The notes under the pieces were generated by a model, which was given only the letters and a program-made list of their open reading frames with translations, searched no databases and was not told the origin of the DNA. A stretch of 64,000 nucleotides of DNA from Nitrospirota bacterium (lineage in GTDB: Bacteria > Nitrospirota > UBA9217): contig CAVUHW010000012.1 in NCBI GenBank assembly GCA_963741205.1, forward strand, positions 64,001-128,000, in the 5' to 3' direction. Below, in pieces: positions 1 to 36,464 of this stretch. The position numbers and the translations under genes are program-made. Numbering within the stretch: the first letter of the stretch is position 1; each line of letters begins with the position of its first letter.

Positions 1-1833
<1,833 letters not shown>

Positions 1834-1914
1834 GTTTTCCCGCATATCCGTAATTCGAATTTCTAAATCCTGATGAGCTTCGAATTTCGGACTTCGAAAT
1901 TCGTGCTTGTTTTG

Positions 1915-4399
<2,485 letters not shown>

Positions 4400-12816: not shown

Positions 12817-12828
12817 TCCGGAGGATTC

Positions 12829-14770: not shown

Positions 14771-16892
14771 TTATGAGACGCGGGGATTGCCGACGCCGAT
14801 CTCATCGCTCAGCACAGGCTCCAGGTTCAGAAACGCCTCGACGACCTTGGGGTCGAATTGCGTTCCCGCGAGTGAGCGGATATGCTCCCGTATCCGTTCT
14901 CCTGGCCATGCGGGATGATACCTTCGTTCCGAATTAAGCGCGTCCCAGATGTCGGCAAGAGAGAAGATGCGGGCCGCAAGCGGGATCTGCTCTCCTTTGA
15001 GACCGCGCGGATACCCAGCTCCGTCCCATCGCTCATGATGGCAGTAGGGTATATCCAGTGCTGGCCTGAGGTAGGAGATGGGGTACAACATTTCGAAGGC
15101 GGAGACCGGATGGCGGCGCATGATCTGCCATTCTTCCTCCGTCAGCGGCCCGCTCTTGAGCAGGATGCTGTCCGGAATGCTCATCTTCCCGATATCGTGC
15201 AAAAGCGCCCCCCTGCGCACGTGCACCAGTTCGGCCTCCTCCATGCCCATGGCGCGGGCGAGGAGCAGCGTCATCTCCACGGCCCGCTTGGTATGGCCTT
15301 CCGTCTCCCGGTCCCTGAGCTCGAGCGCCCGGGCCCAGCCTTCAATCGTGGTATCGTAGGCGAGGATGAGCTCGACATTGGACCGCTGCAGGTCGCTGAA
15401 GAGCGCGGCATTGTCGATGGCGATGGCCGCCTGCGCGGCAAGGGAACCGAGAAAGTTCATCCATTCTTCATCGACCTTGAGGGGCGACCGATGGAGGATG
15501 TCCAGCACGCCCTTCACCTGTCCCTTCGCGATCAGCGGGATGGCATAGTAGGCGGTAAATCCTTCGCCCTCGATGAGCGGCATCCGCTTGAAGTCGTCGT
15601 CCGCTCTCGGCGAGGTTGGGAATGCCGATGCTCCGGCGCTCAAGCGCCGCGCGGCCGGCGATTCCTTCGCCCAGGCGCAGACGGGAGTGACGGATGCCGG
15701 GGTTGCGGAACCCCCGCATGGCCGCGTATTCGAGCGTCTGCGTATGGCGGTCCAGGAGGAGCACGGCCGCGGCGTCGATGTTGAGCTGCGTCATGACGAG
15801 AGTGAGGAACTCCTGGAGAGTAACGCTGAGATCGAGGCTCGAGTTGATGATCAGGTCGATGGCGTGAAGGGTTGCCAGGTGTTCAAGTCGGTATCGGGCC
15901 TGATCTTCCGCTTTTTTGCGGGCGGTAATGTCCTCTCCCGAACTGAGCGTTGCGACCACCTGCCCCTGATCGTCCCTGAGAAGTGTGTTGTGCCAGGCAA
16001 TGATTCGTTCCCTGCCGCCTTTGGTGACGACAGGATTTTCATAATATTCAACCGGCTCGAGCTCCCCGGATATGAACTGGGTAAAAACCGCGCGCACTTC
16101 GCTTTTCATCCGTTCAGGGACGAAATGATCAAACCAGTTCTTGCCGATGATCTCTTTTTCGCGGTATCCGAGGATTTCGGCGCCTTTCCTGTTGATGAGG
16201 ATGACGGCGCCGCTCCGGTCAAGGACGCGGATCATCACCCCGGCCACATCCAGGTATTGTTCGGCGCGCTCTTTCTCCTTCCGGTGCGCCTCTTCGGCGG
16301 CCATGCGCCGGGAAACGTCCCGGAAGATGCCCTGAACAATTTTTTTTCCGCCGACGGTGACGACGCTGGCGCTTATTTCCACCGGGATGTTCCGGCCGTC
16401 GCGATGCATGATGCAAAAGTTATCGCCCATGGCATGTCCCGCACCGAGAGATTCCTGGAGCAGCATCCTGCACCGGTCGGCATCCTTTTGAGGATGGAGC
16501 TCCGTGACATGTCTGCCGATGAGCCGGGACGCCTCCAGGCCCGTCAGTTCTTCGATTTTTTGGTTAACCTCAAGGATGTCGCCGGTTTCCGCGTCAGCGA
16601 TGACAATCCCGTCATTCGCATGCTGCACGAGCATCTGGTATTTTTGCTCGGTATCGCACAGCGCCGCTTCCGCCCGTTCGCGGTTCACGAATTCGCGGCG
16701 GAGGACCAACCAGAGGGCCAGCGCGCTCGCCGCGACGAAAACCCAGCCCTTATATGTCTGGATCACGGTGAGCTTGTGCGGATCGGATACCAGCATTTCT
16801 ACGATCCGGTCCGACAGCGCGATCCAGAGGCTTCCAATGGCAAGATAAAGCAGAATGATCCGCAAAACAGGATGCCGTATGAGCTGTTTCAT
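14771..16892 (-). CDS. Membrane-anchored PAS-PAS-GAF-HD-GYP cyclic dinucleotide phosphodiesterase (frameshift near 15600)
   Basis: Two N-terminal TM helices, two PAS domains, GAF, then HDIGK and HHERWDGAGYP. Confidence 0.88.
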
Positions 16893-16981
16893 GATACCTC
16901 GGCAAGAATAAAAGGACGACCCTGACCATCAATATCTAATTCTATTGTACCACCGTACAGGGGAAAATAACCCTTTCCCGT

Positions 16982-19010: not shown

Positions 19011-20157
19011 TCATGAGCTCAGAAATTCCGTCACCGATCTCTTGATCTCCAGATGATGCACCGGAATGTTCGGCACGTCCTTGTTCCCCGGTATTGCGAG
19101 GATATGGATAAAGGCGGGACCTTTATGCCGATGCTTCATTATCTCGGTAATTTCCTTTTCCGCAGCAACTTTCACCGTCTCCCTGAACCCGAACCCCCGC
19201 GCCACCGATTCAAGATCGACGCATGACCCCGTCAGCGTCGGTTGATTTCCCGTAGATCCGTAAGCGCCGTTGTCGATCGCGATGATGGTAAGATTTTGCG
19301 GCGCAAAGAGGCGGCGGTCGCGAGCGTGCCGGGATTCATGAGAAGGCTCCCGTCGCCGTCGATCACGAAGACTTCCTTTGATGACGCAAGGGCGATGCCA
19401 AGACCGATGGGCGTGGCCATGCCCATGCTGCCGAGCATGTAGAAGTTCGAGGGCTGGTGCTTCAGTGCATAGAGCTCTTTGGACGGCCATCCGAGATTGC
19501 TCACAACAACCTTTCCTTCAAGGTACGGTGCGATGATCTTGATGATATCGTACCGGGTGAAGACGGCACGTGATGCGGCGATGCATGATTTGACGATGCA
19601 CGATGACCTGCATCTCCAGTATCCTTTAATTCCGCACTCCGCATTCTCGCACTCCGCAATCGGACCCCTCCCACACCGCCGGGCTCAGCAGGAATGCATG
19701 AATCCTGTTCCGGTCCGAAGACTTTCCTGAAGCATACGGTCCACCGCGCTGAAATCGCTGCTGCTGTTGATCTCCGAACTGGCAATCCCGGCGCCCGCGA
19801 GGATTGCGGGAAGACGCTGTCCCATCGGGAACTGCGCCTCGATCTTCTCTTGATAGACCCCTCTTCGGCTAACGAACAGGGCAAGGGGCAGCTCATAGAA
19901 ATGCGGTAAGCGAGAGGAGCGCGTTGATCATGTTCCCGATGCCGGAGCTCTGGACGAACATGGCAGGCCGCCTGCCCGAAAGGGCCGCGCCCGCGCAGAT
20001 GCCGACGCCTTCTTCCTCGCGCGTCAGGGGCACGTGAACGAAAGTTCCGGCCGACCATCTCCAGGAGGGTCTTGATCTTCTCGCAGGGCAGCGAGGCGGT
20101 GAAATCCACCGCATGCTTCTTGAGAAGGCTTATGAGTTCTTCTTCAGGACGCGGCAC
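19011..20157 (-). CDS. comDE: Sulfopyruvate decarboxylase ComD/ComE (alpha plus beta, probably fused; frameshifted)
   Basis: Alpha: LPCEKI, LTREEEGVGICAGA, QSSGIGNMINAL, EAQFPMG. Beta: SNLGWPSKELY, NFYMLGSMG, ThDP motif DGDGSLLMN, DNGAYGSTGNQ. Confidence 0.85.
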
Positions 20158-21406
20158 AAAAGCTCCTCGATCTCTTTCCCGGTGACGTTCTTTGAGATGA
20201 ACTGCGGTGCGACTGCATGGGTCTTCCTTGTCCTTTCTCAACCGCGCTTCGCCGCCGCCGGTGATGTTCAGGAGAACGGTGTCGTTCCTGCTGATCGCGC
20301 CGGTTTTGACCGCGTCTTCGAGCGCGGCAACGGCCACGCCCGGCAGCGGGGACGATGTCGATGCCCTCGGTCCTGAGAAACGTTTCCATGGCCGGCGTAG
20401 ACCGCATCGTTCTCGATGCCGTACATCTTTCCGCCGGTTGCGGTGAGCGCATCGTACACGCCGCCTTTGACCGAATAGGCGGGATAGCGGGTCGAGAGGA
20501 CCCGCGTCGTGATCTGCGAGATCAGCTCCGGCCTGAGGTCGCCGGGATCAAGCGTCCGGCTGCTTCTTGCTCCCAGGCATGGAGCATCGGCGCGAACGGC
20601 AAGTTCTGCCCCAGATGCAGGACGGGCAGCCGAGAGCCGAACCTTCCGTCCCGGAGGAACCGCTCGGCCATTTCCCAGGCGCCGACGGCGCCGGTCCCGC
20701 TGCCCACGGCCTGGACGTAATGGTCCGGCAGTTGTCCGATCTTCGACACTGCTTCGAGCATGACAATGCCGAGACCGTCGCGCTTGGCGATATTCTTCAC
20801 GCCGCCTTCGAAGGGGAAACCCAGTGGCCATGGCGATCCTTTTCGCCACATCGATGGAATCGGCATAATCGCCGTCGCCCACCGCGAGGGTCGGGCACCG
20901 TGGATGAGCGCTTCGAGGTACCACATCTCGCCGAGGCACATCGCGGCACGACGATGACCGACGGGAAAGCCCGTGAGCGCGGAAAGATGGGCGAAGGCCC
21001 GCGCCGTGTTTCCGGCGGAGGCGACGATCAGTCCTTCGATGCCGTTCTCCCGGGCGTTCTGGAGCACGATCGCGGCCTCGAATTCCTTGAAGGTGCAGGT
21101 TTCGAGCAGCGCCCCTTTCTCCGGCCAGTAGCCGTTGAAGGCAATGTAGAGATTCTCGAGCCCGATGCTCCCTGCGAGGCCGCTGCGAACTGGTAGACAA
21201 CGGGACCGGGCTGGAGGGATGTCGGGCTCGTGGACCGGAAGCCAGTTGAACCGCCAGACGCCGCCCGACCCGCGCGCTCTCGACAAAGCGGGTGTCGTGA
21301 TAATCGGTCACCAGAAGCGCGTCCTTGCAGTGTTCGCAGAAGGCGCAGTAGGTGTGTTCGAGTGATCTTGCCGCAGTTCGCTGCATCGAATGGAAAAATG
21401 GCTCAT
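20130..21406 (-). CDS. Cysteate synthase (PLP-dependent, threonine synthase homolog; frameshifted)
   Basis: N-terminal Cys pairs; FNGYWPE, TCTFKEFEA (PLP lysine), ASAGNTARAF, EGGVKNIAKRDG, HYVQAVGSGTG, QNLPFAPM, LLNITGGG; overlaps the comD start. Confidence 0.85.
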
Positions 21407-21422
21407 GACTTTTACACTAAGA

Positions 21423-22738
21423 TCACCCGTCACCACGGCCCTGCTCCCACGGAGGGGAGCAGGATGTAGCCCCTCGCCTTGATGGGAGGCGTTCGGTGAG
21501 CGTGAACGTTCCTGGTCGAATGTTTCTATAATCAAATCCGCTCACCAGCTCCATGATGTCCGTGATCCGGATCTGGTTCTTGTGTCCCTGCATGGCCTCG
21601 TTCACCTTGGCGTAGCAGGCGGGACAGGCGAGGATCAGCCGGTCGGCCTTCTTCGCCACCGCCTCATCGATCGTCAGCCTGCCCATGGCGATCGCGTTCT
21701 CATGAAACACCTTTCGTGCCGCGCCGCCGGAGCCGCAGCAGCGCGAGTCCAGGCCGTGGCGCTGGAACTCGAGGAGCTTGATCCCCGGGATGCTTCTAAG
21801 CACCTCTGCGCGGCTCTTCGATCACGCCCACGCCCCGGCTGAGATAGCACGGGTCGTGGTAGATCACGGATTCGCGCAGTTCCTTGTTCAACCGCAGCTT
21901 GCCGTGCTTGATGGCGTCCGAGACATATTGCGTGATATGCCGTGATCGTGAACGGGCAGCGCCTTGCCGTAGAACAGGGGCCAGTCCCGGATCATGATGT
22001 TCACGCAGCAGGGACAGGAGCAGACCAGCGTCTTTACCCCGCTTCGCCTGATAGCCGTCCACGAGCCTCGTGACGAGGTCCTTCAAGAGATCGTGCTGTC
22101 CCGTGATGAAGAGCGGAAAGCCGCAGCAGACCTCCTCCTCGGGCGGCAGCATGGTGAATGGTTCGCCGATGGCGTTCGAGGACGAGCACGTCGCCCCGCA
22201 CCATGGGCTGCGCCTCGTAGGCGCCGGTGCATCCGGCGTAGTAGGCGATGTCCGCGCGCTCGGCGACCTTCACGTTCTCCGGGAACCAGGGCTTGTACCG
22301 GTCCGCGGCCGGCTTGTCATAGGGGTTGCCGGATTTTGCGATGGCCTTGCGGCAGGTCCGCCTGAACGCCGATGGGGCCGAGGCCCGCGCTTCACCATTT
22401 CTTTCCTGAGCATGGGCCAGAGCCGCTGCGTAAAGATGCCCACCGGGCAGTTCTGCCCGCAGGCGCCGCAGGTGGTGCATTCATACACCGCCTTGGTGAA
22501 GTCCTCGAGCATCTTGCGGTCCGCTTCGCGCGGGGCCGAAGAGCCTGGCCTTGAGACCGTCGGTTGCGCGGATGAACTCGCGGAACATGCGGATCTTCTC
22601 CGGCGGCGAGACCGCGGGTCTGCCGGTCACGTCCTGCACCGGGCAGTGCTTCAGGCACTCGCCGCATTGGGTGCAGGCGTCGATCTCGAGGATCTGACGG
22701 GGCGAGAGCTCTTCGGTGAATGAACGTTTATTCTTCAT
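21423..22738 (-). CDS. HdrD/GlpC-like Fe-S oxidoreductase with two CCG domains (frameshifted; end uncertain)
   Basis: CTQCGECLKHCP and CTTCGACGQNCP; YYAGC..CCG..CPCC and YHDPC..CCG..ACPAC. Confidence 0.88.
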
Positions 22739-23409
22739 GGATCACCAGGCGAAGCGCCTGCTCCCGCTTCCTCGCCTCCATCATCACCAGCGGGGCGGTG
22801 AAGATGTGGGTCGGAAGAAAGGGGACCAGGACCAGGACGAGGGAAAAGTGCAGCAGGAACAGCAGGCTCTCCGGCGCCGCGGCCGGATGAAAGCGCAGGA
22901 TGCCGAGGGCGAACAGTTTCACATCCACGAGATCGGGCTTGTACCAGACGCTGCATGATCACGCCGAGGGAACTGATCAGGAGCACCAGGTGACGAGGAA
23001 CACTGTTTGCGGGAGCCGCATATTTTTCGTGCCTGGTGAGCAGCCGGATGACAAGGATATATGCCGCGGCAAAGGGCAGAACGTATCCGGCGATCAACCC
23101 CGGCGTCTGCAGCCACCAGACCCAGAGCGGGACGGGATCCAGGAAGTACCGCAGGTGCCGCAGGATGACGAACAGGAAGGAGGCGTGAAAGGCCCATTCG
23201 CCGATCCAGAGCGCGGGGTTCACGTTCAGGACCCTGCCGAGAAGCAACACATCCACGGCCGTGAGGACGCATGCTTTCAGCGCTGATCGCGGGCCTGTCG
23301 GCTCGCGAAGCCGCTGCGCCGCTCTCCACCACACCAGGAAATGCGCGAAAAACCGCAACCAGAAGGCCGCGTACACGCAGTATGCGGCTACGATGAGAAA
23401 TTTACCCAT
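22728..23409 (-). CDS. HdrE/NarI-like membrane b-type cytochrome subunit (frameshifted)
   Basis: About five TM helices with His pairs (FHASF..LRHLRYF; LHFSL..PTHIF); overlaps the HdrD-like start. Confidence 0.7.
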
Positions 23410-23529
23410 GCATTATCGCCGTTTGCCGTTGCTGCCACTATTGTACCATATCGGGCAGATAACCCCTTGCAACCTGATCGAGCCGGGGTCCGAGCGGTCA
23501 GCGGCATGAGTACGAGATGGTCGACTTCC

Positions 23530-23856
23530 TTATTTGGGACTGTCTTTTTTTACGAAAATGATGCTCGCGTCCTTTGCGACATTGAGTCCCGCCTCGACCT
23601 CGAGCGCCTTCAGGATGCCGGACGGCACGGTGCAGGCGACATGCTTCAGATGTATGGCCGCGGACCGGTAAACGGGATTGCTCGTGAACCCGGTCAGCGG
23701 TGCGAACCGGTCGAGGACCGAGATGTCTTCGAGCATCTTCTTCACCATCTCGCAGTCGGTATCCAGGGAGATGGCGATCTTCCCGCCGGCGACCTTTTCA
23801 GCCCTGATGGTGACGGAAAAGCCGCATGCCCCCGAGTTGACAATGACCTTTGTCAT
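23530..23856 (-). CDS. Small conserved Cys-containing hypothetical protein (DUF6951-like)
   Basis: GACGF..TDC..HVACTVPSGILKA pattern. Confidence 0.6.
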   Translation of the reverse strand: MTKVIVNSGACGFSVTIRAEKVAGGKIAISLDTDCEMVKKMLEDISVLDRFAPLTGFTSNPVYRSAAIHLKHVACTVPSGILKALEVEAGLNVAKDASIIFVKKDSPK

Positions 23857-23998
23857 GATGGCCTTTCATTCCAGCATCCTTATCGCCCCAGATAGACGAT
23901 GAGTCACGATACTATAAATTCCCGCTTCTGCGTGAATTCGATCCAGCCCTGCGCGTACATTTATCCCAGGGCCGATGAACCTTTATCCGCATTCCGAC

Positions 23999-25984
23999 TC
24001 ACGCCTTGATCTCAACCGTGCTCCCCTTCTTTGCGAGGTACTCCTTCAAATTCGGGAACTTGTCCTTCATGTGCGGAATATGCATCGCCATCATGAATTC
24101 CCTTTCGAAGGCCGGGTCCGTGGCGATCTCGACGAATTCGACCCAGCGCGCCCGCTCATTCGCCTCTATGCGCTTGCCCCGGTTCAGGAGCGCCATGCGC
24201 GAACCGTCGCCGGCCGCGTTGCCCACGGCGTAGATCTTGTCGAGGGGCAGTCGGGGAACATGCCGAGCGTCAGCGATGCCTCGCGGTCGATGTGGCTCCC
24301 GAAGGCGCCGGCAAGGATAACGCGGTCGAGCTGTGGTGATGCCGAGCTTCTTCATCATGAGCTTCGCGCCCGTGTAGAGCGCGCCCTTGGCGAGCTGGAG
24401 CGCGCGCACGTCGCCCTGGGTGATGGTGATGTCCTGGCCGATGGAGGTCTCCGTTGCCCAGGCGAGGACATACTCGGGCTTGCCGTCGGCGTCCTTCCTG
24501 ACCCGCGGCGTGCCCAGGTCCATCACGAACCTGCCGCTCTTGTCGATGATGCCGGCCTTGAACATCTCGGCGACCACCTGGATGATGCCCGAACCGCAGA
24601 GGCCCTTCGCATCCACCTTCTGGATATGCGTGTGCCAGTCCGCCTTGCCGATGACCTTGTAGCGCGGTTCCTTCGTCGCGGGGTCGATCTCCACGGTCTC
24701 GATGGCGCCGGGGGCCGCCCGCATGCCGAACTTGATCTGGGCGCCCTCGAAGGCCGGTCCGGTGGCGCAGGACGTGGAGCAGACCTTGTCCCGGTTGCCC
24801 ATGAGCAGTTCGCCGTTCGTGCCGATGTCGATGATCAGCACCTTCTCGTCCTGGTTATAGGGTTCCTCGGCGATCAGGACGCCCACGTTGTCGGCGCCCA
24901 CGAAGCCCGCCTCGATGGGCAGCACATGGATGTAGGCGGCGGGATTGATCTGGAGGCCCAGGTCGCGCGCCTTGATGTCGAGCGAGCTCTGGACCGCGGG
25001 GATGAAGGGCGACCGGCCGATGTACTCGGGGTTCAGGCCCAGGAAGATGTGGTGCATGGCCGTGTTGAACACGATCGTGAGGTCGTCGATGACATATCCG
25101 GGGTTCGGCCCGTCCTTGTTGATGTCGCGTCACAACGCGCTCGATGATCTCGTTCAGGCCCTGGATGATCGCTTTCTGCATGGTCTCCAGGCCCACGCCG
25201 GGATTGCTCATGGCATAGGTGATGCGGGACATCACGTCCTCGCCGTAGGGCACCTGGGGGTTCATCATGGACTCGGTGTTCACCACCTTGCCGGTGTTCA
25301 GGTCCGTCAGGTAGCCCACGCAGGTCGTCGTGCCGATGTCCACGGCAAGCCCGTAGCTCTCCTCGACGAACCCCGGCTCCGCCTTGATGATCTCCTTGTC
25401 CATCCAGACGGTGACCGTGGCCTTCCATCCGCCTTTGCGAATCACGTCCTGGAGGTCCTTCAAGACCAGATAATCGAAGGTGAGGCCCTTGAGCCCGTAG
25501 TCGTCCTCAAGGAACTTCAGGACCCGTTCCCAGTCCCCGGTCGTCATGTCGTGGAGCGTGGGAGGGGTGAGCTCGACGTTGTATTTTTTCACGGCCGGAT
25601 CGAGCTTGATCGTGAGCTCTTTGGCCGCCTTCCGGACGACCTGCTTGCCCGCGCGGGAACGCTCGGGCACGAAGACCTTGATGTCGCCCCGGATCTCGCT
25701 CTGGCAGGACAGTCTGATGCCGGGCCCGTCCTGGGGCTTGATGTGCTTCATCTCGTCGGGCGACGGCACGGCAGGGGAGAGTGGGCCATGCCCGAATCGA
25801 TGTTGTCCTTCTCGAAATAGCCTTCTTCGATCCTTACCTTGCACTTTCCGCAGACTTTTTTATTGCCGCAGAGCGCTTCGATATCAACGCCCAGGGCCTG
25901 GGCGGCCTCGAGGATGGTCTTGCCTTCCTCGATCTCGCCGCGCCTGCCCGCAGGCTGAAATATGACCTTGTGTTTCTTAATCAT
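23999..25984 (-). CDS. Reductive activator of corrinoid proteins (RACo/RamA-like, 2Fe-2S plus ASKHA; frameshifted)
   Basis: CGNKKVCGKC..RLSCQ, AVDIGTTT, NPQVPYGEDVMSRI, IDIGTNGE, ATGPAFEGA, GLCGSG. Confidence 0.92.
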
Positions 25985-26051
25985 GCAATTCCTCCTAATA
26001 CTAAATCATGAGAATTCACCACAGAGCACGAGGTAGCGAAAATGAGCGAAC

Positions 26052-26767
26052 TCAGAAGTAAGACACCTTTCTAGATTCGCGCCTCGATTCCGGGCTGATG
26101 TCTCCGTGATCTCCGCGTCTCCTGCTTCGCGATCTTTTTCGCGTTTCTCTTCTCCCATAGGGGCAGATGTTGATGCACAGCCCGCAGTTGGGTTTGCCGT
26201 CCGTGGCCCGCTTGGCCTTCTTATGACTCCTGCAGGCGTCGAGCCTCACGAGCTCCACAAAGGGAAGGGACCGGGACCATTCCGCGCCCGTGATCGCCTT
26301 CGACGGACAGTAGTCCACGCAGAGCGAGCAACTCGCCGCACAGACTGTGTTCGATCGGCGCGTCCGGCTCGAAGCGGCGCGTCGGTCAGCACCGTGCCAG
26401 GGACAGCCGCGGGCCGTAGTCGGGGCTGATGAGGAGCCCGTTCTTCCCGATCCAGCCCAGCCCCGCGGAGGTGGCCGCCATCTTGTGGTTGAACAGCGAG
26501 TAGAGCTTCGAAATGAACGTGCCCTTCTTCCGGTCCGAGTCCGGCGGGATGGCCAGCGTGCGGTACCCCCGGGATTTCAGGAACCGCACGGCGCGCTTCT
26601 GGAGCTTCATGAGGAGGCTCAAGCGTGTCCTCATTCAGCCTGCGGTCCACGCCGATGGACACGGCCTGCTCCAGATGGGCGATCTCGCCGCTCATATGGC
26701 CCCGGAGACCGGCAAACCCGACGACGTCGGCGCCGTGGTCCAGCAGCTCTTTCCTGAGCGAGGTTCT

Positions 26768-26771
<4 letters not shown>
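26052..26771 (-). CDS. QueG/reductive-dehalogenase-like Fe-S protein (frameshifted)
   Basis: HKMAATSAGLGWIGKNGLLISPDYGPRL, CGECSLCVDYCP and CGLCINICP. Confidence 0.75.
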
Positions 26772-27464
<693 letters not shown>

Positions 27465-27468
27465 GGGA

Positions 27469-28496
27469 TTACCTCCTGTAATTTCTGACTTCATCCATCA
27501 TCGCCTTGAAATTTTCGGCCGGCACCGTGGGCCAGATGTCGCACCCGGGCCAGACCGCGCTCACGCCGTCGTCCATGCATTTCTTGACGGTCTGGCGCAC
27601 GAGGTCCGGCGTTCCCGCCACCAGCACATTGTAGGGGTCGTAGTTCCCGAAGACGAGCGCCTTGGGGCCGAGCTTCTTGCGCGTCTCGGCGACGTCGTTC
27701 TTCTGGTCCACGCTGATCGCCTTCGCGCCGCTCTCGGCCATGAAGGGAACGATGTCGTTCGTCTTGCCGCAGATGTGGATCGCGCTCGGCACGGTGATCT
27801 TCTCGAAGATCTTCTTGAGGTAGGGCAGGATGAGGCTCTTGAACACGCGGGGGCAGAGCACGTCGGAAGTCGCGCCCATCTCCCTGACGGTGATGTAGTC
27901 CACGCCGGCCTTCTGGTACTCCCCTGCCACCTGGATGATCACGTCCGTCAGCTGGTCGAGCAATTTCCCGATCTTGTCCGGCTTCTTGAAGGACAGCTTC
28001 AGGAGGTCGTTCAGCTCCATGATCTGGCCCGCGAGCGTGAAGGGACCGAGCACGTAGGAGCCCACGGCCGCCTCGCCGCCGATGTCCTTCTTGATCAGCT
28101 TGATCGCCTCGACCATGAGCGGCACCCTGCCCCGCTTGGTGAGGTCGGACGGGATGGAGAGCTCCATCTCGGCCTCGTTGTGGATCAGCTTTTTCTTGAT
28201 CGTGGGGTACAGCAGGTCCTCGGAATGGGCATACACATTGATCTCGCACCCCATGGCCTCGGCCTCGATGCAGAGGTCGAAGGGCGCGACCGCGCATTCG
28301 AACCCGAACAGCTTGTACGTAGTAGCCGCCGCCGCGGCCATCATCTTTGCGTCAAGGTGCGTTGCCGCGAATTCTGGTTCAGCGATTTCAGCCCCTCGGT
28401 GGTCACGTTGCCCATGCCGCTGAAGCACGGCGGCCGGTCCACTTCCTCGCCGGCGAACATCTTCAGCACCCGTTCTCTTGAATTCATTGTTGTCAT
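27469..28496 (-). CDS. MtaA/CmuA-family methylcobamide:thiol (CoM-type) methyltransferase
   Basis: PFDLCIEAEAMG, GPFTLA, Zn motif HICG..PGCD; N-terminal frameshift (MTTMNSRERVLK). Confidence 0.88.
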
Positions 28497-28630
28497 GCAA
28501 TCTCCTTCCTGATACGAAAATAAAATTTATTGTAAATTGCAGATTGAAAGTTGGAATTACATTTTCAGAGATTCAGTTTTGTAAAATTCAATTTCGAATA
28601 CTCCGCTATTCAATCGGCGTCTGTCAGCGC

Positions 28631-29577
28631 CTACTTTCTCGCTGCTCCCGAGGTCAATTTTCCCAGGAAATCCGAAAAATACTTCTTGATCGGCAGATTG
28701 GGATTGTCCGATATCTTATGCGTCTCGTCATACACCAGCGTGGAAAGCAGGACATGCGCCGCCGCCACTGCCGGGATGATCCGCGGCATCGTTACGATGG
28801 GGCCGCAGAAATTGAAATCGCTCCACAGCGCCGAAGCCATGCCCTGGACCACGGCGTCCATGGCCTTGAACCCGTCGAGGCTCCAGATGGTCTTCGCCTC
28901 CTTCCACATGTGCGTGCCGTTCGAGTAGGCGCCGCCGCAGGGGAGCCCCAGCTTCTCCTTGATCATCCGGTTGGCGACGAGCGAGAACGACGTGGCGGGC
29001 AGGTTCATGACCGAGGTGTCGACGATGACGGTTTCGAAGCTGTCGGCGCCCTGGCGAGGATGTTCTCCAGGGACTTGAGCCGGCCGGCGGGCGACTGGTC
29101 CTGTCGTCGAAGGCCTGTACCACGACGTGCTTGATCCCGAGGTCTTTGAGCTTCTGGACCTGGCCCTTGATGTCCTTGTCCCAGGGGGTGATGCTGTTGT
29201 ACAGGAACTTGTCCTGCAGTCCCAGCTTGGCGACATATTCCGTTGCCTGCGCGCGTTTTTCCGCGACCCACATGTCGATGCCGAAGGGCATGGTCGGTCG
29301 TCTCGCGGTAAAAGTCGATGTAGATCTTCGCCTCTTCCGGCGAGTTGGCGACCATGGCCACCATGGACGGGATGCCGGTGGAGGCCGAAAGCTGCTCCAT
29401 CGTTTTGATGAGTTCCGCGGCCTTCGCGCGGTCGAAATTCCCTTTCCGGTCGGTCACGATCCGGTCCTTGTTGTGGAACATGGACGCGATCTGAAGCGGC
29501 GGATTTTCGCCCGGCTGCCCGCCGACCTTGATCCCGCCAGAGTTGAATGTCTTTTGATCTTTTTTAAATTGAAACAT
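28631..29577 (-). CDS. MtrH/MtgA-family pterin methyltransferase (frameshifted)
   Basis: MFQFKKDQK..GGQPGENP..SMF, PFGID, YNSI, G.PCGGAYSN and GPI motifs. Confidence 0.85.
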
Positions 29578-29669
29578 TTACCGTCCTCGCATTATGCCGC
29601 CATTCCGGACTTGATCGGGGAATGACCGATAAGAATAGTCTGAGCAAGAGAGTAACGAATTATGAGTCC

Positions 29670-29705
29670 AAAAAAACGGGGGAGCCATTCGAAACGCTCC
29701 CCCGT
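29670..29705 (-). terminator. Rho-independent terminator after the CMD-family gene
   Basis: Minus strand ACGGGGGAGC-loop-GCTCCCCCGT followed by a T-tract. Confidence 0.7.
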
Positions 29706-29718
29706 CGATAGTTCATGG

Positions 29719-30161
29719 TTAGAACACGCCGTGGTCGAACTTGGGCTGCGGCAGGTACTCCCACTTCTCGCCCTTGCGGAACTTGGCTTCGATATCGAGG
29801 CACTTCAGGGCATACTCGAAGGCGTAGGGGATGCCGGGTCCGCCGGGCACGAAGCCGCCGAGGATCATGCCGACCGAGGCGGCCTCGAAGATCTCGCCCG
29901 TGGTCGCGCCCGCGTTGATCGCGGGATCACATGGATGATGCAGCGCGGCGAGCAATAGGCGACGCCGCCGGACATGAACATCAGCTCCTTGTACTTGCGG
30001 GAAAGGGCGCCGTCGCCGAAGATGCTCGCGTAGAAATCGGCGAAGGTCCTGCCCGGTTCGGGCGTGACGGTGTTGATGATCTGGAACATGCGGGGAACGA
30101 AACCGCACTGCTTCTTCATGTAGTCGTTCACTTCTTCCAACGTCATTTTCTTGTCAGCCAT
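29719..30161 (-). CDS. Carboxymuconolactone decarboxylase/AhpD-family protein (frameshift)
   Basis: GALSRKYKELM..CSPRCIIHV..GATTGEIFEA. Confidence 0.8.
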
Positions 30162-30282
30162 TTTTGTTCCCTCCCCTTGCCCGGATGCGCTCTGCGCCCG
30201 GGAAAACAGTTTTTTCAACTCCTCCAAAATACCCACTGAATCGACCTCCTTTCACGAAACCGAACCGTATCACCTCCTTCGT

Positions 30283-30472
30283 AACCACAGGCGGCTGCGC
30301 CGCACACGGTAAAGATTAAAACCAGCCCCGACGAAAGCGTTCTGCCCGAGTTATTATTATCGTGTTCATCCGCATGCACCCAGCGATTACGAGTGGCACG
30401 TAACCTGCTCTTGCGAAAGCGCGGCCATAAACGAGTGCGGGGTGTGAGTCACGCGAAGCGGGACCCGTGGTT
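30283..30472. repeat. AACCAC..GTGGTT element, copy 2
   Basis: AACCACAGG-hairpin-ACACGGTAA ... GTGTG-hairpin-CCCGTGGTT. Confidence 0.55.
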
Positions 30473-30476
30473 GCAA

Positions 30477-31529
30477 TCACAGTTTCCACTCCAGCGCCAC
30501 GTCGTGGAACTTCCGGAGATTCTCGTAGGGAATCGTCGGCGGGATGTCGCACCCGGGCACCAGGATGAACCCGCCGTCCTTGCCGGCGACCTCGATGACC
30601 TCGCGGCAGGCCTTCTCCACCCCCGCGACGTCCTGGTTGAGCAACACGTGCACCGGCGCGACGTTGCCCCCGAAGCTCATCTTCCCCTGCAGCGCCTCCT
30701 TGGCCTTGGCGATGTCCACCTTCTGGTCGAAGAAGATCGTGCTCGCCCCCGTGAGCGGGAACAGATCCAGCCGGTCGCTGGTGTTCCCGCAGATGTGCAG
30801 GATCGAGTGCACGCCCTTGCCCTTGGCCCAGCCGGTGAGCTTCTTCAGGCCCGGCACCGCGAAGCGCTCCATCTGCTTCTTGTTGATCAGATCTCCCGAG
30901 GCGGTCGGGTCAGCGATGCTGATGCACTCGAGGCCGTCCTTTACCAGCGGCTCGTAGAGGTGGATCAGCAGGTCGGCGCAGAAATCGACCATCTTCTCGA
31001 CGAACGCCGGCTTCTTGAAGGTCGCCTTCATGAACTGCTCCTCGCCGACGAAGCGCGCCGCAAGGGTGAACGGCCCCCAGCAGGTCATCGTCACGAGGTA
31101 GGTGTCGCCGATCTTCTCCCGGACGCGCCGGGTCGCCTCGAGCACCGTCTGGACGACCGGCTCGCGGTGGACGTCGGCGATGTCGAGCTTCGCCAGGTCC
31201 TCCTCGGAGTTGACGAAGTGGGTGGTCATGTCGGGAGCGCCCATCTCGCGGTACTTGATCCCGACCCCGAAGGCCTTGCCGAGCGCCGAGGCGTGGAAGT
31301 TGTTGAAGCCCGAGCCGACGTAGACGACGTCGCTTCGGATTCGCGCCGCCTCCGCCACGCACATATCGGTCATCTTCTGCGGATCGTGGGCGAGCGCCTC
31401 GAAGGTCGTCCCGAAGTCCTTGATCGACCACATCCCCGCGCCGAAGAGGGTCACGGGAATCCGGTCGCCCTTGCCGCCCTCAAATGCCTTGAGTATCACT
31501 TCCTTCGGTTTCATAGCATCTCCCTTCAT
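30477..31529 (-). CDS. Second MtaA/URO-D-family Zn methyltransferase
   Basis: Intact 350 aa; WGPFTLA, ADPTASG, LHICGN and GFILVPGCD. Confidence 0.88.
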   Translation of the reverse strand: MKGDAMKPKEVILKAFEGGKGDRIPVTLFGAGMWSIKDFGTTFEALAHDPQKMTDMCVAEAARIRSDVVYVGSGFNNFHASALGKAFGVGIKYREMGAPDMTTHFVNSEEDLAKLDIADVHREPVVQTVLEATRRVREKIGDTYLVTMTCWGPFTLAARFVGEEQFMKATFKKPAFVEKMVDFCADLLIHLYEPLVKDGLECISIADPTASGDLINKKQMERFAVPGLKKLTGWAKGKGVHSILHICGNTSDRLDLFPLTGASTIFFDQKVDIAKAKEALQGKMSFGGNVAPVHVLLNQDVAGVEKACREVIEVAGKDGGFILVPGCDIPPTIPYENLRKFHDVALEWKL

Positions 31530-31636
31530 GAATAAAGTAGAATCAAACCTTCAGCCCGCTTGGGGCCGCCATCATTTAATGTAGCACAAATAGAGTTCCT
31601 GCGTGTATGGGCTGACAGCAACGGTCCTAATGGGCT

Positions 31637-31964
31637 TCAGACTGCGATACTGTGGATCGTGTGCTTGAACTCTTCGAGATCAACGGGCGTCTCGACGGAC
31701 GGCACATCCGCATCGACTGCCGCCCCCCACGACGAGCGTGGGCGTGCCCGGCGACACGGCCTTGATGATCTCCACCGCGTCCTCGGCGGACAGGCCGAAG
31801 GGCTCCGAATCGATGATGACGAAATCATATTTCCCGAACAGGACCTTTTGAACGGCGAGGGAGGGATGCTCGACGATTTCCACGTTGTAGCCTTCCTCGC
31901 GAAGGACACAGTAGAGGCTCTTGACCAGAATGGGATTGGAGGAACAGAGAATGATGTTCTTCAT
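31637..31964 (-). CDS. Atypical stand-alone receiver-domain protein (frameshift)
   Basis: Receiver-like fold pattern (IILCS..EGY.V..YDFVIID..P); N-terminal acidic pair absent. Confidence 0.6.
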
Positions 31965-31978
31965 GGCAGGGATTTAAC

Positions 31979-31994
31979 TGCATTTGCGATGCCA
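31979..31994 (-). promoter_or_regulatory. Sigma-54 (-24/-12) promoter
   Basis: Minus strand TGGCATCGCAAATGCA: GG-N10-GC spacing. Confidence 0.6.
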
Positions 31995-32338: not shown

Positions 32339-33518
32339 TCAGTCCCTCGAGTGGCACTTGTTGCAGAGTTCCTTCTGGTAGGTGGCAAACCGGGAGCTCG
32401 GCCGGTCATAAAAGGCCCTCTGCGTCTGGGCCGCCGTTCGTCCCTGAGCATATCGCGCGGGCGAGCCATTATCGGTACCCGGGTAAAGGCCTTTATAAAC
32501 GAGGAAAGTCGAGCTCATGTTCCATCTTGTGACCAGAGTCCCAGCCTGATGCATGCGCCCGGTGACAGGTGAGACACATCACCGTGGAATTGGAGTCGGG
32601 CCCCTGGAGATAGCTGCCATCGGTTTTTGCGTGCTGCGCGAGGATAGTTCTGTCATCGGTCCCTTCCTCGAACGGCACCAGGGACGTGTATGAAGTTTCG
32701 CTCCTGCCATTGATGTCTCCGGATTTGACGTATGTGTTGTAATTGGAAATAATCTTCGTGGTAAATCTGGCCTGAGCTCCGGCATGATGTACGTTCCCTG
32801 TTTGACGGTTTGTATGGCAATTCGTGCACCATTCCGCCATGCCCTTGCCGTAGGCGACCCTCGTATCCGTTTGAGCCTCAGGCCTGTTGTAGTCGCGCGG
32901 GGCAACCGCAACGGGCGGATCAACCGTGAAAATCATTCCGGGGACCGAACTTGTTTTATACCCGATGCCGCCGAGCATGCGATAGGCGCTTGCCGCAGCC
33001 GGATCTTTTACGATTTTGCCGTGTGGATCATGGCAACTCGTGCAGGAAAGCCGGTCCGAGGGATAGAGACCGCTCGGCGCCGTTAAATTTGTTCTGTCGG
33101 CCTCATATCCGTAGTCAAGTGCAACGATATTATGTCCGTGACGTTCTCCAAGGCTCCTTTCCGTTTGTCCCAAAAAAGTCCAGGAGTAGGTCACCTTTAA
33201 ATAGCCGAAGTCTCCGCCGGGCGTTAATTGAGAGGGCGGCGCACCTGCCCTGAGATCCTCGGTACTGGTCGCTACGTAAGAACCCGTTGGGATCCTGGTC
33301 CCCACCGGCGCCTGATGGCAGCGTAGGCAGGTAGAGCTTGCGTCAGACCGCTTTCAGGGAAGCGTTCTTATCTGCTATATGACACTCAAGGCACTCGCTG
33401 CTACTGCCCGTATGAAATGGGTCGCCGGGCTGAGATATGCTTCGCCGGGGCTGCACCAACAAATCATGACAAGACAGGTCATGATAGCAATCTCAAATAC
33501 TTTAAAGCCTTTTCCCAT
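32339..33518 (-). CDS. OmcS/OmcT-family hexaheme c-type cytochrome (frameshifted)
   Basis: Six CxxCH motifs (CLECH, CLRCH, CTSCH, CTNCH, CLTCH, CNKCH) plus OmcS-like blocks TPGGDFG, GHNIVA.DY, TRVAYG.GM.EWC, PFEEGT, CHRAHASG. Confidence 0.88.
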
Positions 33519-33866: not shown

Positions 33867-35102
33867 TTAATGCGCGGATGCCGAAGCCTTTTCCGCCCTC
33901 AGCTTTGCCGCCTCATCCTTGATTTTCTGGAGTGTCTCCTTCATCGGCGCCCAGCCGTACCAGTGCATGTAATCGGGGTTCATGTGGAAGGCCCCCTCGA
34001 AGGCCCGCATCCGGTACTCGAGGAACATTACATAGAGGTCCTGCTCAACGGAGCTCTTTGCCTCGTAGAACTGCAGAAGATCGGGGGCCGTGGTCCAGTC
34101 CGCCGGCTTCGAGAGCACGCCGTCCTTGTACAGGCCCTGCACCACCCTGATCGCCTCGGCCATGACCTTGTCCGCTTCCTTCACCACGAGGTCCGCCTCG
34201 TCGAGCTGTTTTTTCGCATAGCCGGCGCCGTGGCACTTGGCGCAGATCGAGATCATCTTGTCTCGCTCCTTCTGGAACTCTTCCTTGGTAAGCCGGGCGA
34301 CCCTGCCCGCCTTCACGAGGTCGAGCCGGGCCGTGGGATTGCCCTTGTCGTCGAGCACGCCCAGGGCCTGCAGGATCGAGACGCGGTCGTTCAGCCAGTC
34401 TTTGTCGTCCTCAGGCAGACGGAGGGCAAGAAAGCCCCATGAGGTGATCACGTTGTGGTCGCCGCCGCTCATATGGCAGGTCTGGCAGGTGGGCGCGCGT
34501 TTGCTGTCCTTGCCTTCGATCTGCCAGATGGTGCCGTGCTTGGACGTCGACCACATCTCCCACTGGGGATGGTCGAAGCCCATGTGGCAGGTCTGGCAGG
34601 CGCGCGGGTCCTGGGCCTCGGACTTCTTGAAAGAATGCCTGGTGTGGCATGAGTCGCATTGGGCATGGCCGTAGCGGATCTGCGATTTTTCCGTGTCGGA
34701 CTTGGCGCCGATCTTGTGGCAGCTCGAGCAGCCTTTGTATCCCTCGCCGGCAACGGCCCTGGGCTGGTGGCCCATCATGGGCATGGAGCTCGAAGCTATC
34801 CAGGCGAGGTTGTGCTTGCCCGCCTTGAACTGGTCCGCCTGCTTGTTGTGGCAGCGGGCGCAGGTTTCCGGCGTCGGCATCTGCGCGAGTTTCGCGTCGT
34901 CCATCTTCATGTGGGCCGAGCCGTGGCAGGCCGAGCAGTCGATGCCTTTTTTCCCCATCTTTCCCTCGAGGTGCTGCTGTACGATGCCGGGCGTCACCTT
35001 CTTGTGACACTCGACGCAGGCGCTCTGTTTCGGCGCAGCCGACGCTGCCATGCCGAAGAGCAGAACAATACCGAATACGAACAAAATCCTGAGCTGCTTC
35101 AT
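33867..35102 (-). CDS. Octaheme HAO-family cytochrome c
   Basis: Signal peptide, eight CxxCH motifs, CHTRHSF, CHMGFDHPQWE..SKHG and GAFHMNPDY. Confidence 0.88.
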   Translation of the reverse strand: MKQLRILFVFGIVLLFGMAASAAPKQSACVECHKKVTPGIVQQHLEGKMGKKGIDCSACHGSAHMKMDDAKLAQMPTPETCARCHNKQADQFKAGKHNLAWIASSSMPMMGHQPRAVAGEGYKGCSSCHKIGAKSDTEKSQIRYGHAQCDSCHTRHSFKKSEAQDPRACQTCHMGFDHPQWEMWSTSKHGTIWQIEGKDSKRAPTCQTCHMSGGDHNVITSWGFLALRLPEDDKDWLNDRVSILQALGVLDDKGNPTARLDLVKAGRVARLTKEEFQKERDKMISICAKCHGAGYAKKQLDEADLVVKEADKVMAEAIRVVQGLYKDGVLSKPADWTTAPDLLQFYEAKSSVEQDLYVMFLEYRMRAFEGAFHMNPDYMHWYGWAPMKETLQKIKDEAAKLRAEKASASAH

Positions 35103-35422
35103 GCTGTGTTTCCTCCTTTTGGTTTTATGATTTCAATCAAGGCACATAGGGATCAATTCGCGGCGCTTGCATGTCGCAAGCAGCATTAACAGTGTAGCGC
35201 GTTTTTTACCGAACTGCGGGACGGGATGATTTGCATGAACCGTCATACTCTATAGGAAGGCGGACAAAACAGGTATGATACGGATCATATTCCTGAGGGT
35301 TGGTGTTCTGGTTTGGACGGGGGATATTTTTTATATTACATTTTTCCGGTGATGCAGTACAATGTGCATTGAGGCGCCATGGGTGGTGTTGGCGATATCA
35401 TCACTGAGGGGCCGGGGAAGGT

Positions 35423-36464
35423 ATGAAAACGACTGTCGTGTGCGGATTATTGGGTTCAGGAAAGACGACCTTCATCAGGAATTATGTCCGGGGCTTGACC
35501 GGCAGGGTTGTGGTATTGGTCAACGATTTCGGCGCCGCAGGCATCGACGGCGAGATCTTCAGCGCCGGAGGGATCGAGGCAATAGAACTTCCGAGCGGGT
35601 GCGTTTGCTGCACGCTCAGGTTTGATCTCATCACGACAATCAGAAAGATCTCACAGGAGTTCGCGCCGGAACATCTCGTGATCGAACCAAGCGGCGTGGC
35701 CTCGCCTTCATCCGTGCTCGAAGCGCTCGAAGACGCCGGCGCGGGCCCGGCGAGCGTGGTCGGCATCGTCGATGCCGCGGAGTTTACCGAGCTCCAGGAT
35801 TCCGGCATGTACGGCAGCTTTTTCGAGGACCAGCTCAAAAGCTCCGACGTGGTTCTCGTGAACAAAACAGACATTGCTGAAGAAGAGAAGATCAGCGAAA
35901 CCATCCGCCGCATCGAGTCCATCAATCCAAGGGCGATCGTATTGCGCACCGTAAATGCCAAGACGCAGAAGGAATCGCTCCCTCTCCCTGCCGGGGAGAG
36001 GTGCCGGGGTGAGGGGTCCGGCGTTACGACGCGGGCAGGATGATCACTTTCATTTCGAGACACTGTCATTCAGGGTGAATCAGGGTGCGAAGCTTGCCGG
36101 CTTATCAGGCTTTTTTCATGATCTGGCAGCAGGACGATACGGCAACGTAGTGAGGGCAAAAGCGTTGATACAATCGGAAGAGGGCCCTTATCGTTTCGAC
36201 GTTGTTTTTGAGAGGGTTGACAAGATTCGATTCGACAACGATATCGGGGAAAGCAGGGTCGTGGTTATCGGCGAGGGGCTGAATAAACCGGCTATCGAAA
36301 GCGCTCTGCGGGAGGATGGCGTGAGGAGCCGGGAGAAGCAAGCAGCGCTAGCCGGCCGAGGGTCGCCGCTAATCTCTGCCTTTCAGAAAATGCCCATAAT
36401 GAAGCGTCTGGTCCACGATATGGGATTTTATCCTGCTGATTTGCTGTTCTCCCTGATCAGATAA
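35423..36464 (+). CDS. CobW/COG0523 metallochaperone GTPase (frameshift; end uncertain)
   Basis: GLLGSGKTT, GCVCC, IEPSG, NKTD and C-terminal RAK.. Confidence 0.88.

Follow-up and report, generated by a model that had tools for sequence, protein, structure and literature searches.

A 13-gene operon in the genome of a Nitrospirota bacterium may both supply a thiol of the coenzyme M (CoM) type and use it in corrinoid-dependent methyl transfer. The operon occupies 19011-31973 on the minus strand of the window analysed here, a stretch of 64,000 nucleotides (positions 64,001 to 128,000 of contig CAVUHW010000012.1, GenBank assembly GCA_963741205.1). Gene identities, motifs, synteny and phylogeny establish its three modules, which are a block of corrinoid methyltransferase genes, a pair resembling the HdrE and HdrD subunits of heterodisulfide reductase, and cysteate synthase followed by the fused sulfopyruvate decarboxylase ComDE. 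The organism is anaerobic and sulfite-reducing and bears dsrAB and the Wood-Ljungdahl pathway. We hold with moderate confidence that the three modules work together on a CoM-type thiol; that CoM itself is made and used as the methyl carrier is plausible but unproven.

In the mechanism that we propose, the RACo activase and a 2x[4Fe-4S] protein would hold the corrinoid protein as Co(I), the MtrH-like enzyme would swap a methyl group between the corrinoid and a pterin, presumably tetrahydrofolate, and two zinc (His-Cys-Cys) MtaA-like enzymes, MtaA1 and MtaA2, would swap it between the corrinoid and thiols or thioethers. The HdrD-like protein, which contains CCG motifs and would sit on a NarI-type di-haem membrane subunit, would form with it a quinol-linked thiol/disulfide oxidoreductase. 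Cysteate synthase and ComDE would convert phosphoserine and sulfite, the latter an intermediate of the cell's own sulfite metabolism, into cysteate, sulfopyruvate and then sulfoacetaldehyde, which would most likely be thiolated to CoM or a closely similar sulfonate thiol; where the cell produces sulfide, this thiolation may proceed without a dedicated enzyme. At least one of the MtaA-like enzymes would pass methyl groups to the thiol or take them from it, thereby joining methylated sulfur compounds to the folate branch of the Wood-Ljungdahl pathway, and the Hdr-like pair would hold the thiol pool in reduced form or link it to quinones. We infer the aminotransferase step, the thiolation step and CoM as the product, and likewise which thiols MtaA1 and MtaA2 accept, which pterin takes part, which way the flux runs and what the HdrD-like protein acts on. 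Methanethiol or dimethyl sulfide as the methylated substrate is a guess, as is the recycling of a CoM disulfide by the HdrDE-like pair.

Cysteate synthase and ComDE are members of the archaeal families

Family calls were made with Pfam and NCBIfam on the open reading frame (ORF) pieces of the window and on intact orthologues from locus L014. Because of frameshifts, the cysteate synthase of the window yields mere pieces; its intact L014 orthologue reached 452.4 bits with TIGR03844, above the equivalog cut-off of 324.9, and threonine synthase models gave at most 78 bits on the same protein. The ComD half of the L014 ComDE was also above its cut-off (181.8 versus 147.95), and the ComE half fell just under (216.3 versus 221.5) in L014 and above (232.1) in G095 of the same genus. 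The phosphonopyruvate decarboxylase model failed on the ComDE orthologue (213.5 versus 312.5). In a quick IQ-TREE phylogeny of 75 sequences, with the genome's own ThrC as a single long outgroup and a root that is unsure, the 47 bacterial cysteate synthases formed one clade (SH-aLRT 100), which was sister to three Hydrothermarchaeota-type archaeal sequences (SH-aLRT 98), and the two groups together lay among sequences of Methanosarcinales and Methanoperedens. ThrC stood on a branch of length 10, far from the cysteate synthase clade. A preliminary description of the region had called these two proteins from ORF translations and had named a grouping with threonine synthase or phosphonate decarboxylases as the outcome to fear; the scores, and for cysteate synthase the tree, instead place both in their true families, with a predicted conversion of phosphoserine and sulfite to cysteate by the first.

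The pair resembles the type 2 (phosphoserine-dependent) CoM pathway of Methanosarcinales, which consists of cysteate synthase (MA3297), ComDE (MA3298) and the CoM synthase MMP16/ComF (MA3299) (PMC11844431): cysteate synthase is followed immediately by a fused ComDE, with equivalog-level scores and membership of the same clade. It differs in that no COG1900 CoM synthase was found nearby or in the genomes searched, that the host is a bacterium without a detected mcrA, and that the pair closes an operon of methyltransferase and Hdr-like genes. The host genome (4.27 Mb, 84.5% complete, 4.9% contaminated) contains dsrAB and the CODH/ACS beta subunit; at that completeness neither mcrA nor ComA was found in it. 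The checks of mcr and of Wood-Ljungdahl genes that had been proposed for the region both came out in favour of the CoM reading.

The gene order recurs across Nitrospirota families and in an archaeon

A search of species-representative genomes with a piece of cysteate synthase gave 368 relatives, and the locus counts that follow refer to the best 80 of these 368, 52 of them bacterial and 28 archaeal. The bacterial loci included 44 from Nitrospirota among those in the tree, two from Rokuibacteriota, one from a metagenome-assembled genome (MAG) labelled Betaproteobacteria and one unclassified. ComDE came directly after cysteate synthase in all 52 bacterial and in 27 of the 28 archaeal loci. Among the 43 bacterial loci with at least 1.5 kb of sequence before cysteate synthase, 40 had an HdrD orthologue there (all but L011, L042 and L043), the small protein DUF6951 was present in 39 of the 41 that reach 3.2 kb (exceptions L037 and L042), and the whole block from the CMD gene through DUF6951 was complete in 21 of the 26 that reach 9.3 kb; three of the remaining five miss CMD alone, which was pushed past the locus edge. 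The genes keep their order on a single strand, with short gaps, across many Nitrospirota families, and chance is far from sufficient to explain an arrangement seen in the same order in dozens of independent genomes.

Within the phylum, an even sample of 401 Nitrospirota genomes had cysteate synthase in 70 (67 over the cut-off, approximately one in six). In the family to which the window belongs, 37 of 63 genomes had it, and in the genus 12 of 14; three large families gave none (0/76, 0/40 and 0/28). DUF6951 occurred in 74 of the 401, and comparison of the two lists placed both proteins in 66 genomes. The same gene set is also present in the Hydrothermarchaeales archaeon L053 as two divergent operons, one with CMD, a NarI-like membrane protein, HdrD, MtaA2 and DUF6951, and the other with MtaA1, the corrinoid protein, RACo, MtrH, cysteate synthase and ComDE. 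The loci of Methanosarcinales and Methanoperedens share with the operon cysteate synthase and ComDE alone. These synteny counts, together with L053, bear out the co-conservation on which the preliminary description had made its reading depend.

No published account of this cluster turned up in the literature searched, including work that names cysteate synthase, and cysteate synthase and Nitrospir* were mentioned together in unrelated work alone. This agrees with the earlier statement that no characterised bacterial system of this kind was known. The covered sections of three papers on Hydrothermarchaeota mention mtrH, methyltransferases and the lack of MCR, and do not describe the cluster (PMC6775978, PMC6946796, PMC9635834).

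The methyltransferase block has zinc-site MtaA-like enzymes and an MtrH-family partner

The MtaA1 orthologue scored above the cut-offs of NF004889 (283.4 versus 244) and TIGR01463 (255.3 versus 235.4), and so reaches the level of the MtaA/CmuA family and of the methylcobalamin:CoM methyltransferase subfamily. The best solved relative of both MtaA-like enzymes is 4AY7, the MtaA of M. mazei (165 bits for MtaA1 and 97 bits for MtaA2), and the HICG...PGC stretches of both align with the parts of 4AY7 that we take, partly from its structure paper, to be the zinc ligands (His-x-Cys...Cys). Both proteins thus carry the thiol-methyltransferase zinc site that the preliminary description had assumed. 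A His-Cys-Cys zinc site is also given for MtaA-like proteins in PMC10418091. In a protein search with MtaA1, the best 120 of 3115 matches were all at least 82% identical and represent near-identical environmental proteins.

Three known or proposed systems are close to this block. With the MtaA/MtbA/MtsA systems of methanogens it shares the URO-D fold, the His-Cys-Cys zinc site, a cognate corrinoid protein and an activase, and in Methanolobus DUF6951 and a CMD-like gene also lie beside such systems. Unlike them, the operon has no substrate-specific first methyltransferase of the MtaB/MttB/MtmB type and no Mcr to consume methyl-CoM, its activase is of the bacterial RACo type rather than RamA, and an MtrH-like gene is part of the same operon. 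The type 1 mlp clusters described by Kountz and Balskus in anaerobic bacteria and Methanococcales also combine several MtaA-like UroD proteins with His-Cys-Cys sites, a corrinoid protein and a RACE/RACo activase; their hosts are non-methylotrophic and a role in methyl-sulfur or methyl-selenium metabolism was proposed (PMC10418091). However, those clusters are described as lacking a folate or pterin methyltransferase, with no CoM-biosynthesis or Hdr-like genes named in the part of the paper covered (PMC10418091); by architecture, the present operon shares much with the type 1 definition, which asks for two or more Mlp proteins (Mlp2 and Mlp3), a corrinoid protein and RACE with no folate methyltransferase, and its MtrH-family gene places it outside. 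The main text of that paper mentions none of Nitrospir*, cysteate, sulfopyruvate and MtrH, and its supplementary lists might name such organisms. Finally, the MtrAH (methyl-tetrahydrofolate:CoM) proposal for a Methanomassiliicoccales MAG (Speth and Orphan 2018, as given in bioRxiv 10.1101/2020.03.09.984617) likewise uses an MtrH-type protein to link the methyl-pterin of the Wood-Ljungdahl pathway to CoM through a corrinoid. Here the corrinoid protein is instead soluble and of the MtaC type, MtaA-like enzymes are present and the host is a bacterium, and MtrAH is itself a hypothesis.

Two more corrinoid methyltransferase loci were seen in the host genome (G000), at C18:170141-171873 (corrinoid protein and a URO-D-like gene) and C22:194828-198550 (RACo-like and a URO-D-like gene).

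DUF6951 and CMD are probable accessories of corrinoid systems

The protein that the preliminary description called a small Cys protein is DUF6951, with three invariant cysteines (C11, C35 and C75). Its AF2 model (pLDDT 92) weakly resembles the IscU/SufE/CsdE fold (E 0.03-0.3, TM 0.5-0.57); the profile-profile comparison with IscU homologues was not significant (probability ~0.1%), so that any likeness rests on a weak fold match. DUF6951 is multi-copy in Methanolobus and Methanohalophilus (6, 3 and 2 matches), where at loci L108-L111 tandem copies lie beside a CMD-like gene, an EamA transporter, a corrinoid protein and a PAS sensor, and one copy in this set overlaps a gene for a RamA-like activase. 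Because both DUF6951 and CMD recur beside corrinoid proteins or RamA-like activases in these methanogens, they look like general accessories of corrinoid methyl-transfer systems.

The CMD/AhpD-fold protein has an invariant YCSPRCIIH motif within a highly conserved alignment, is 86% identical to that of L014 once frameshifts are corrected, and has AhpD and CMD structures as its top PDB matches. This call of the preliminary description could not be made from the window pieces; it holds on the intact orthologue.

Another idea, that DUF6951 serves the HdrD-like protein as a substrate in the manner of DsrC, was set aside, as the protein occurs without adjacent HdrED in family f3 (described below) and beside RamA-like activases and corrinoid proteins in Methanolobus. 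A complex prediction for the HdrD-like protein with DUF6951 scored 0.00, which speaks neither for nor against an interaction. No mention of DUF6951 was found in the literature.

The HdrE/HdrD-like pair has the architecture of HdrDE and DsrMK

In the HdrD-like protein, both ferredoxin motifs (C22/25/28/32 and C87/90/93/97) and the cysteines of both CCG motifs (C169, C203-C204, C240/C243 and C295, C331-C332, C369/C372) are invariant among 21 sequences. The HdrE-like protein has approximately five hydrophobic segments and four histidines that are invariant in 36 of 36 orthologues, and its orthologue in L037 matches PF02665 of the NarI family; on these features the earlier HdrE-like call stands. 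The pair thus has the two four-cysteine ferredoxin motifs, two CCG motifs and membrane histidine set of HdrDE. In this it is like HdrDE of Methanosarcina and DsrMK of sulfate reducers, in which a NarI-type di-haem membrane protein is joined to a cytoplasmic protein with two [4Fe-4S] clusters and two CCG motifs. It is unlike them in that the operon protein stays under all named cut-offs, and the genome's own dsr genes sit elsewhere.

An intact HdrD-like paralogue, L116, is encoded on another contig (G000, C49:10738-11937, minus strand) and is 74% identical to the operon's orthologue. Its neighbours are a DsrE-like gene (13812-14207), a DsrH-like gene (13519-13845) and an ArsR-type gene (14983-15390), and the frameshifted ORFs between the genes of this region gave no Pfam match. 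HdrD-like paralogues with one in-frame TGA, a possible selenocysteine codon, were seen in two other Nitrospirota genomes, G385 (C5:31526-32707) and G169 (C21:180851-182032).

How far the evidence carries the CoM reading

Several of our results, and some published ones, weigh against CoM as the shared cofactor. The first concerns its last biosynthetic step. The preliminary description had looked to comF for support, and none was found: the COG1900/HcyBio family (ComF, PF01837) gave no match in the host genome, while control genomes matched, and PF01837 was not found in four relatives that are 99-100% complete (G095, G087, G005 and G042) or in the archaeal MAG G405. Of the 28 archaeal loci, 7 had a COG1900 gene no more than 10 kb from cysteate synthase; of the 52 bacterial loci, none did. 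The CoM synthase of methanogens, MMP16/ComF, is a COG1900 protein; in the same study an M. acetivorans mutant without MMP16 grew without CoM if sulfide was supplied, and sulfide and sulfoacetaldehyde could yield CoM abiotically (PMC11844431). Because the step can be bypassed at high sulfide and the cell forms sulfide, we do not regard the missing ComF as decisive. In a Rokuibacteriota MAG (L042, 8641-12391), moreover, cysteate synthase and ComDE are followed by ThiF (E1-like) and a Prok-JAB protease, the parts of a sulfur-carrier system, which hints at a thiol product there.

The second concerns the fit of the enzymes to their families. MtaA1 and MtaA2 fall short of the methanogen MtaA and MtbA equivalogs: MtaA1 scored 259 versus 400 for MtaA and 188.5 versus 600 for MtbA, and MtaA2 was under every cut-off (TIGR01463 179.2 versus 235.4, MtaA 156 versus 400, MtbA 170 versus 600). 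The M. barkeri MtaA methylates many different thiols (PMC13618148), and bacterial MtaA homologues in mlp clusters were proposed to act in methyl-sulfur or methyl-selenide metabolism without CoM (PMC10418091); hence family membership does not fix the thiol substrate. The HdrD-like protein reached no named family cut-off in the NCBIfam scan (TfrB was best at 184.7 versus 385, and DsrK gave 101 versus 400), and no HdrD model was among the matches of its orthologue. Because the intact paralogue adjoins DsrE- and DsrH-like genes, this protein family may act on protein-bound sulfur rather than on a CoM disulfide.

The third concerns the unity of the operon, whose parts are separable, since family f3 and the loci L037 and L011 each carry subsets. 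In the four genomes of f3 (G030 is 97% complete), the genes from the receiver protein through DUF6951 are present, and HdrED, cysteate synthase and ComDE are missing beside them; searches gave ComE in none of four of these genomes and ComA in none of three, and an HdrD-like gene of 44% identity lies approximately 5 kb from the methyltransferase block. At the f3 loci L112 and L113 a radical-SAM protein, a SAM methyltransferase and a B12-binding radical-SAM protein replace HdrED, cysteate synthase and ComDE after DUF6951, with a sigma-54-type response regulator and a histidine kinase upstream. The f3 block without CoM genes indicates that the methyltransferase module can work without this CoM route. 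In L037, HdrE, HdrD, cysteate synthase and ComDE stand behind unrelated radical-SAM genes without the methyltransferase block, and in the Nitrospirota locus L011 (8989-9863) DUF6951 is followed after ~570 bp by cysteate synthase, without HdrE and HdrD between them. Energetics add a further point: moving a methyl group from a thioether to a pterin costs energy, as known for Mtr, so the benefit of a CoM intermediate is unclear. Our caution about CoM comes mainly from the f3 variant and the missing CoM synthase. The overall CoM reading of the preliminary description is therefore upheld in part: co-conservation, true family membership, the zinc sites and the lack of a detected mcrA speak for it, and the CoM synthase that was not found and the separable modules speak against it.

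Alternatively, the modules may be neighbours that share no cofactor, which we consider unlikely. The methyltransferase block would then be self-contained and link methyl-sulfur or methyl-selenium compounds (or other methyl donors) with tetrahydrofolate, much like an mlp cluster to which an MtrH-type folate methyltransferase has been added. Cysteate synthase and ComDE, whether or not HdrED takes part, would feed cysteate or sulfoacetaldehyde into a separate path, for example to taurine, isethionate or some other sulfonate that serves as osmolyte or lipid head group. This would explain the f3 block without cysteate synthase, ComDE and ComA, the L037 locus, and the ComF that was found neither in the host genome nor in the five others; mlp clusters work without CoM genes (PMC10418091), and a bacterial cysteate synthase has been read as part of anaerobic taurine synthesis (PMC12019592). 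The Rokuibacteriota locus L042, with cysteate synthase and ComDE and none of the other operon modules, fits as well. Against an assembly of unrelated neighbours stand the tight single-strand order with short gaps in many families and in an archaeon, the 66 of 401 genomes that hold both cysteate synthase and DUF6951, and the single clade formed by the cysteate synthases of cluster-bearing bacteria and archaea, as expected if the unit was transferred whole. Moreover, no taurine- or isethionate-forming genes were seen in the cluster.

A different role for the HdrED-like pair, perhaps with DUF6951 or CMD, would be biosynthetic: it would carry out the reductive thiolation of sulfoacetaldehyde to CoM in place of the COG1900 enzyme. 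In 40 of 43 loci the pair is the immediate upstream neighbour of cysteate synthase and ComDE, and at L037, which lacks the block, these genes are still found together; no COG1900 homologue was found, the HdrD paralogue adjoins DsrE- and DsrH-like sulfur-relay genes, and the DUF6951 model is weakly similar to the sulfur acceptors and scaffolds IscU, SufE and CsdE. However, L011 has cysteate synthase and ComDE without HdrED, f3 has its HdrD-like gene near a block without cysteate synthase and ComDE, Methanolobus, which possesses a ComF, likewise has DUF6951 and a CMD-like gene beside corrinoid proteins and a RamA-like activase, and the IscU match is as weak as stated above. A quinol is also, by estimate, a weak reductant for such a reaction. 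We regard this role as quite improbable. That the sulfonate genes are catabolic, with imported cysteate or sulfolactate taken through sulfopyruvate to sulfoacetaldehyde and the sulfite released to the dissimilatory sulfite reductase, is very unlikely: ComDE does take part in bacterial sulfolactate degradation and the host has dsrAB, but the cysteate synthase is an equivalog-level member of a biosynthetic family and lies inside its clade, its pairing with ComDE is the biosynthetic pairing of Methanosarcinales, and neither the cluster nor its flanks showed a sulfoacetaldehyde acetyltransferase, a sulfonate transporter or a sulfo-lyase.

The frameshifts look like assembly errors

When intact L014 proteins were aligned to the window by a frameshift-aware dynamic programme, 47 frameshifts were required (Table 1), with none in MtaA2 and DUF6951; identity to L014 in this alignment was 67-93%, and no in-frame stop occurred in ~3,800 codons. 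In the same window gyrA (2-1132 and 1017-1751) and gyrB (1918-2373 and 2492-3643), together covering 2-3643 on the minus strand, are likewise split across frames, and outside the window the genome shows the same splitting in dsrA, acsB and a hemE-like gene. Among public sequencing runs, none contained even half of the sequence words of the stretch, with shares of at most 0.10. We placed on the region the contigs of relatives, at least 88% alike, from four public sediment runs (two DNA and two RNA libraries). Nine of the 12 listed indels in these contigs lay at most 5 nt from predicted frameshift sites (24246, 24334, 26619, 26764, 27043, 27347, 28371, 29102 and 29295), matching in sign each time. 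Contigs from the RNA libraries, at the same likeness, covered 26 and 27 of 30 bins, although such libraries may contain DNA. The depth of the contigs comes from relatives and is unusable for ranking genes, and an ORF-coverage statistic was too noisy for frameshift rates in this GC-rich genome.

Because there are no in-frame stops, gyrA and gyrB are split too, and the relatives' contigs do not have the indels, the 47 frameshifts look like consensus errors of the assembly and not gene decay, as the advice of the preliminary description to polish the assembly had hinted. A decaying operon, with the frameshifts as true mutations and the cluster dead in this genome, would account for their uneven density, highest in cysteate synthase (14) and the HdrD-like gene (7) and zero in MtaA2 and DUF6951, and for the second, intact HdrD-like gene on another contig; the same three observations, with the high corrected identity and the other split genes outside the window, lead us to reject pseudogenisation as scarcely credible.

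Genes of the operon and their surroundings

The 13 genes are listed in Table 1; the gene list, order and strand of the preliminary description were all correct. The Response_reg score of the receiver protein is weak (20.7 bits versus a cut-off of 30.2), and its gene is kept in the equivalent position in L011, L115, L112 and L113; its C-terminus may be misread, because relatives' contigs are without one base at 31718. Among the other orthologues, the MtrH-like protein was above the cut-off of NF002142 (320.8 versus 287) and under that of MtgA (150.9 versus 550), the corrinoid protein was under that of TIGR02370 (208.2 versus 215.3), the 2x[4Fe-4S] protein gave partial matches to TIGR00276 (66.5 bits) and TIGR02486 (62.5 bits), and the RACo-type activase scored 465.6 bits with an AcsV-like model, below that model's cut-off.

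Table 1. Operon genes in order of transcription, with window positions, frameshifts relative to L014 and family matches
Gene product	Position	Strand	Frameshifts	Family evidence
Receiver-domain protein, small (94 aa as assembled), first gene of block	31683..31964	-		PF00072, E 5e-4
MtaA2, divergent MtaA/CmuA-like URO-D family methyltransferase (350 aa)	30480..31529	-	0 (intact)	URO-D 193.5 bits
CMD/AhpD-fold protein	29722..30295	-	2	PF02627 26.7 bits on intact orthologue
MtrH-like methyl-pterin:corrinoid methyltransferase	28634..29577	-	3	PF02007 in two frames
MtaA1, MtaA/CmuA family corrinoid:thiol methyltransferase	27472..28496	-	1 (at 28372)	URO-D 227.5 bits
Corrinoid (B12-binding) protein	26772..27464	-	3	PF02607 (B12-binding_2) and PF02310 (B12-binding)
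2x[4Fe-4S] protein, like Fe-S part of QueG/reductive dehalogenases	26078..26771	-	6	Fer4_16, Fer4_7
RACo-type ATP-dependent reductive activase of corrinoid proteins	24002..25984	-	4	Fer2, RACo_linker, Raco_middle, RACo_C_ter
DUF6951 small protein	23539..23856	-	0 (intact)	PF22263 95.6 bits (gathering score 27)
HdrE/DsrM/NarI-type membrane cytochrome b-like subunit	22731..23409	-	1	Weak DsrM match
HdrD-like iron-sulfur protein	21531..22738	-	7	CCG x2 and Fer4_8 on orthologue; Fer4 and CCG on window pieces
Cysteate synthase	20133..21406	-	14	TIGR03844 pieces of 240, 47 and 36 bits in three frames
Fused sulfopyruvate decarboxylase ComDE	19014..20157	-	6	TIGR03845 (ComD) and TIGR03846 (ComE) pieces

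Immediately upstream, the operon is bordered by two genes for multihaem cytochromes c and one for a CobW/COG0523 GTPase (32496-33353, minus; 33870-35132, minus; 35408-36040, plus), a neighbourhood that was not kept in the relatives inspected. Downstream are YidC and a PAS/GAF sensor protein (12817-14526, plus; 15471-16928, minus), with no link to sulfonate metabolism.

Implications for CoM outside methanogens

CoM is regarded as a hallmark of methane- and alkane-metabolising archaea; the sole bacterial exception, to our knowledge, is the aerobic alkene oxidisers, which use a different biosynthetic route. A stronger form of our proposal, which we offer as a tentative and rather doubtful one, is that widespread Nitrospirota of soil, sediment and groundwater, together with Hydrothermarchaeota, make genuine CoM through a last step that does not use COG1900, possibly with the HdrED-like pair and DUF6951, and run an Mcr-independent shuttle between methyl-CoM and methyl-folate with HdrDE-like coupling to quinones. 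If true, Bacteria would have their first example of a C1 and energy metabolism built on CoM, and anaerobic methyl-sulfur cycling would gain a missing player. The ecology of CoM would change as well: methanogens auxotrophic for CoM might be supplied by these organisms, and inhibitors of methanogens that are CoM analogues could hit off-target organisms. The module, being common to the Mcr-less Hydrothermarchaeota, would be older or more mobile than methanogenesis. For DUF6951, a family that has gone unstudied, the three invariant cysteines and the recurrence beside corrinoid systems offer a first hint of function.

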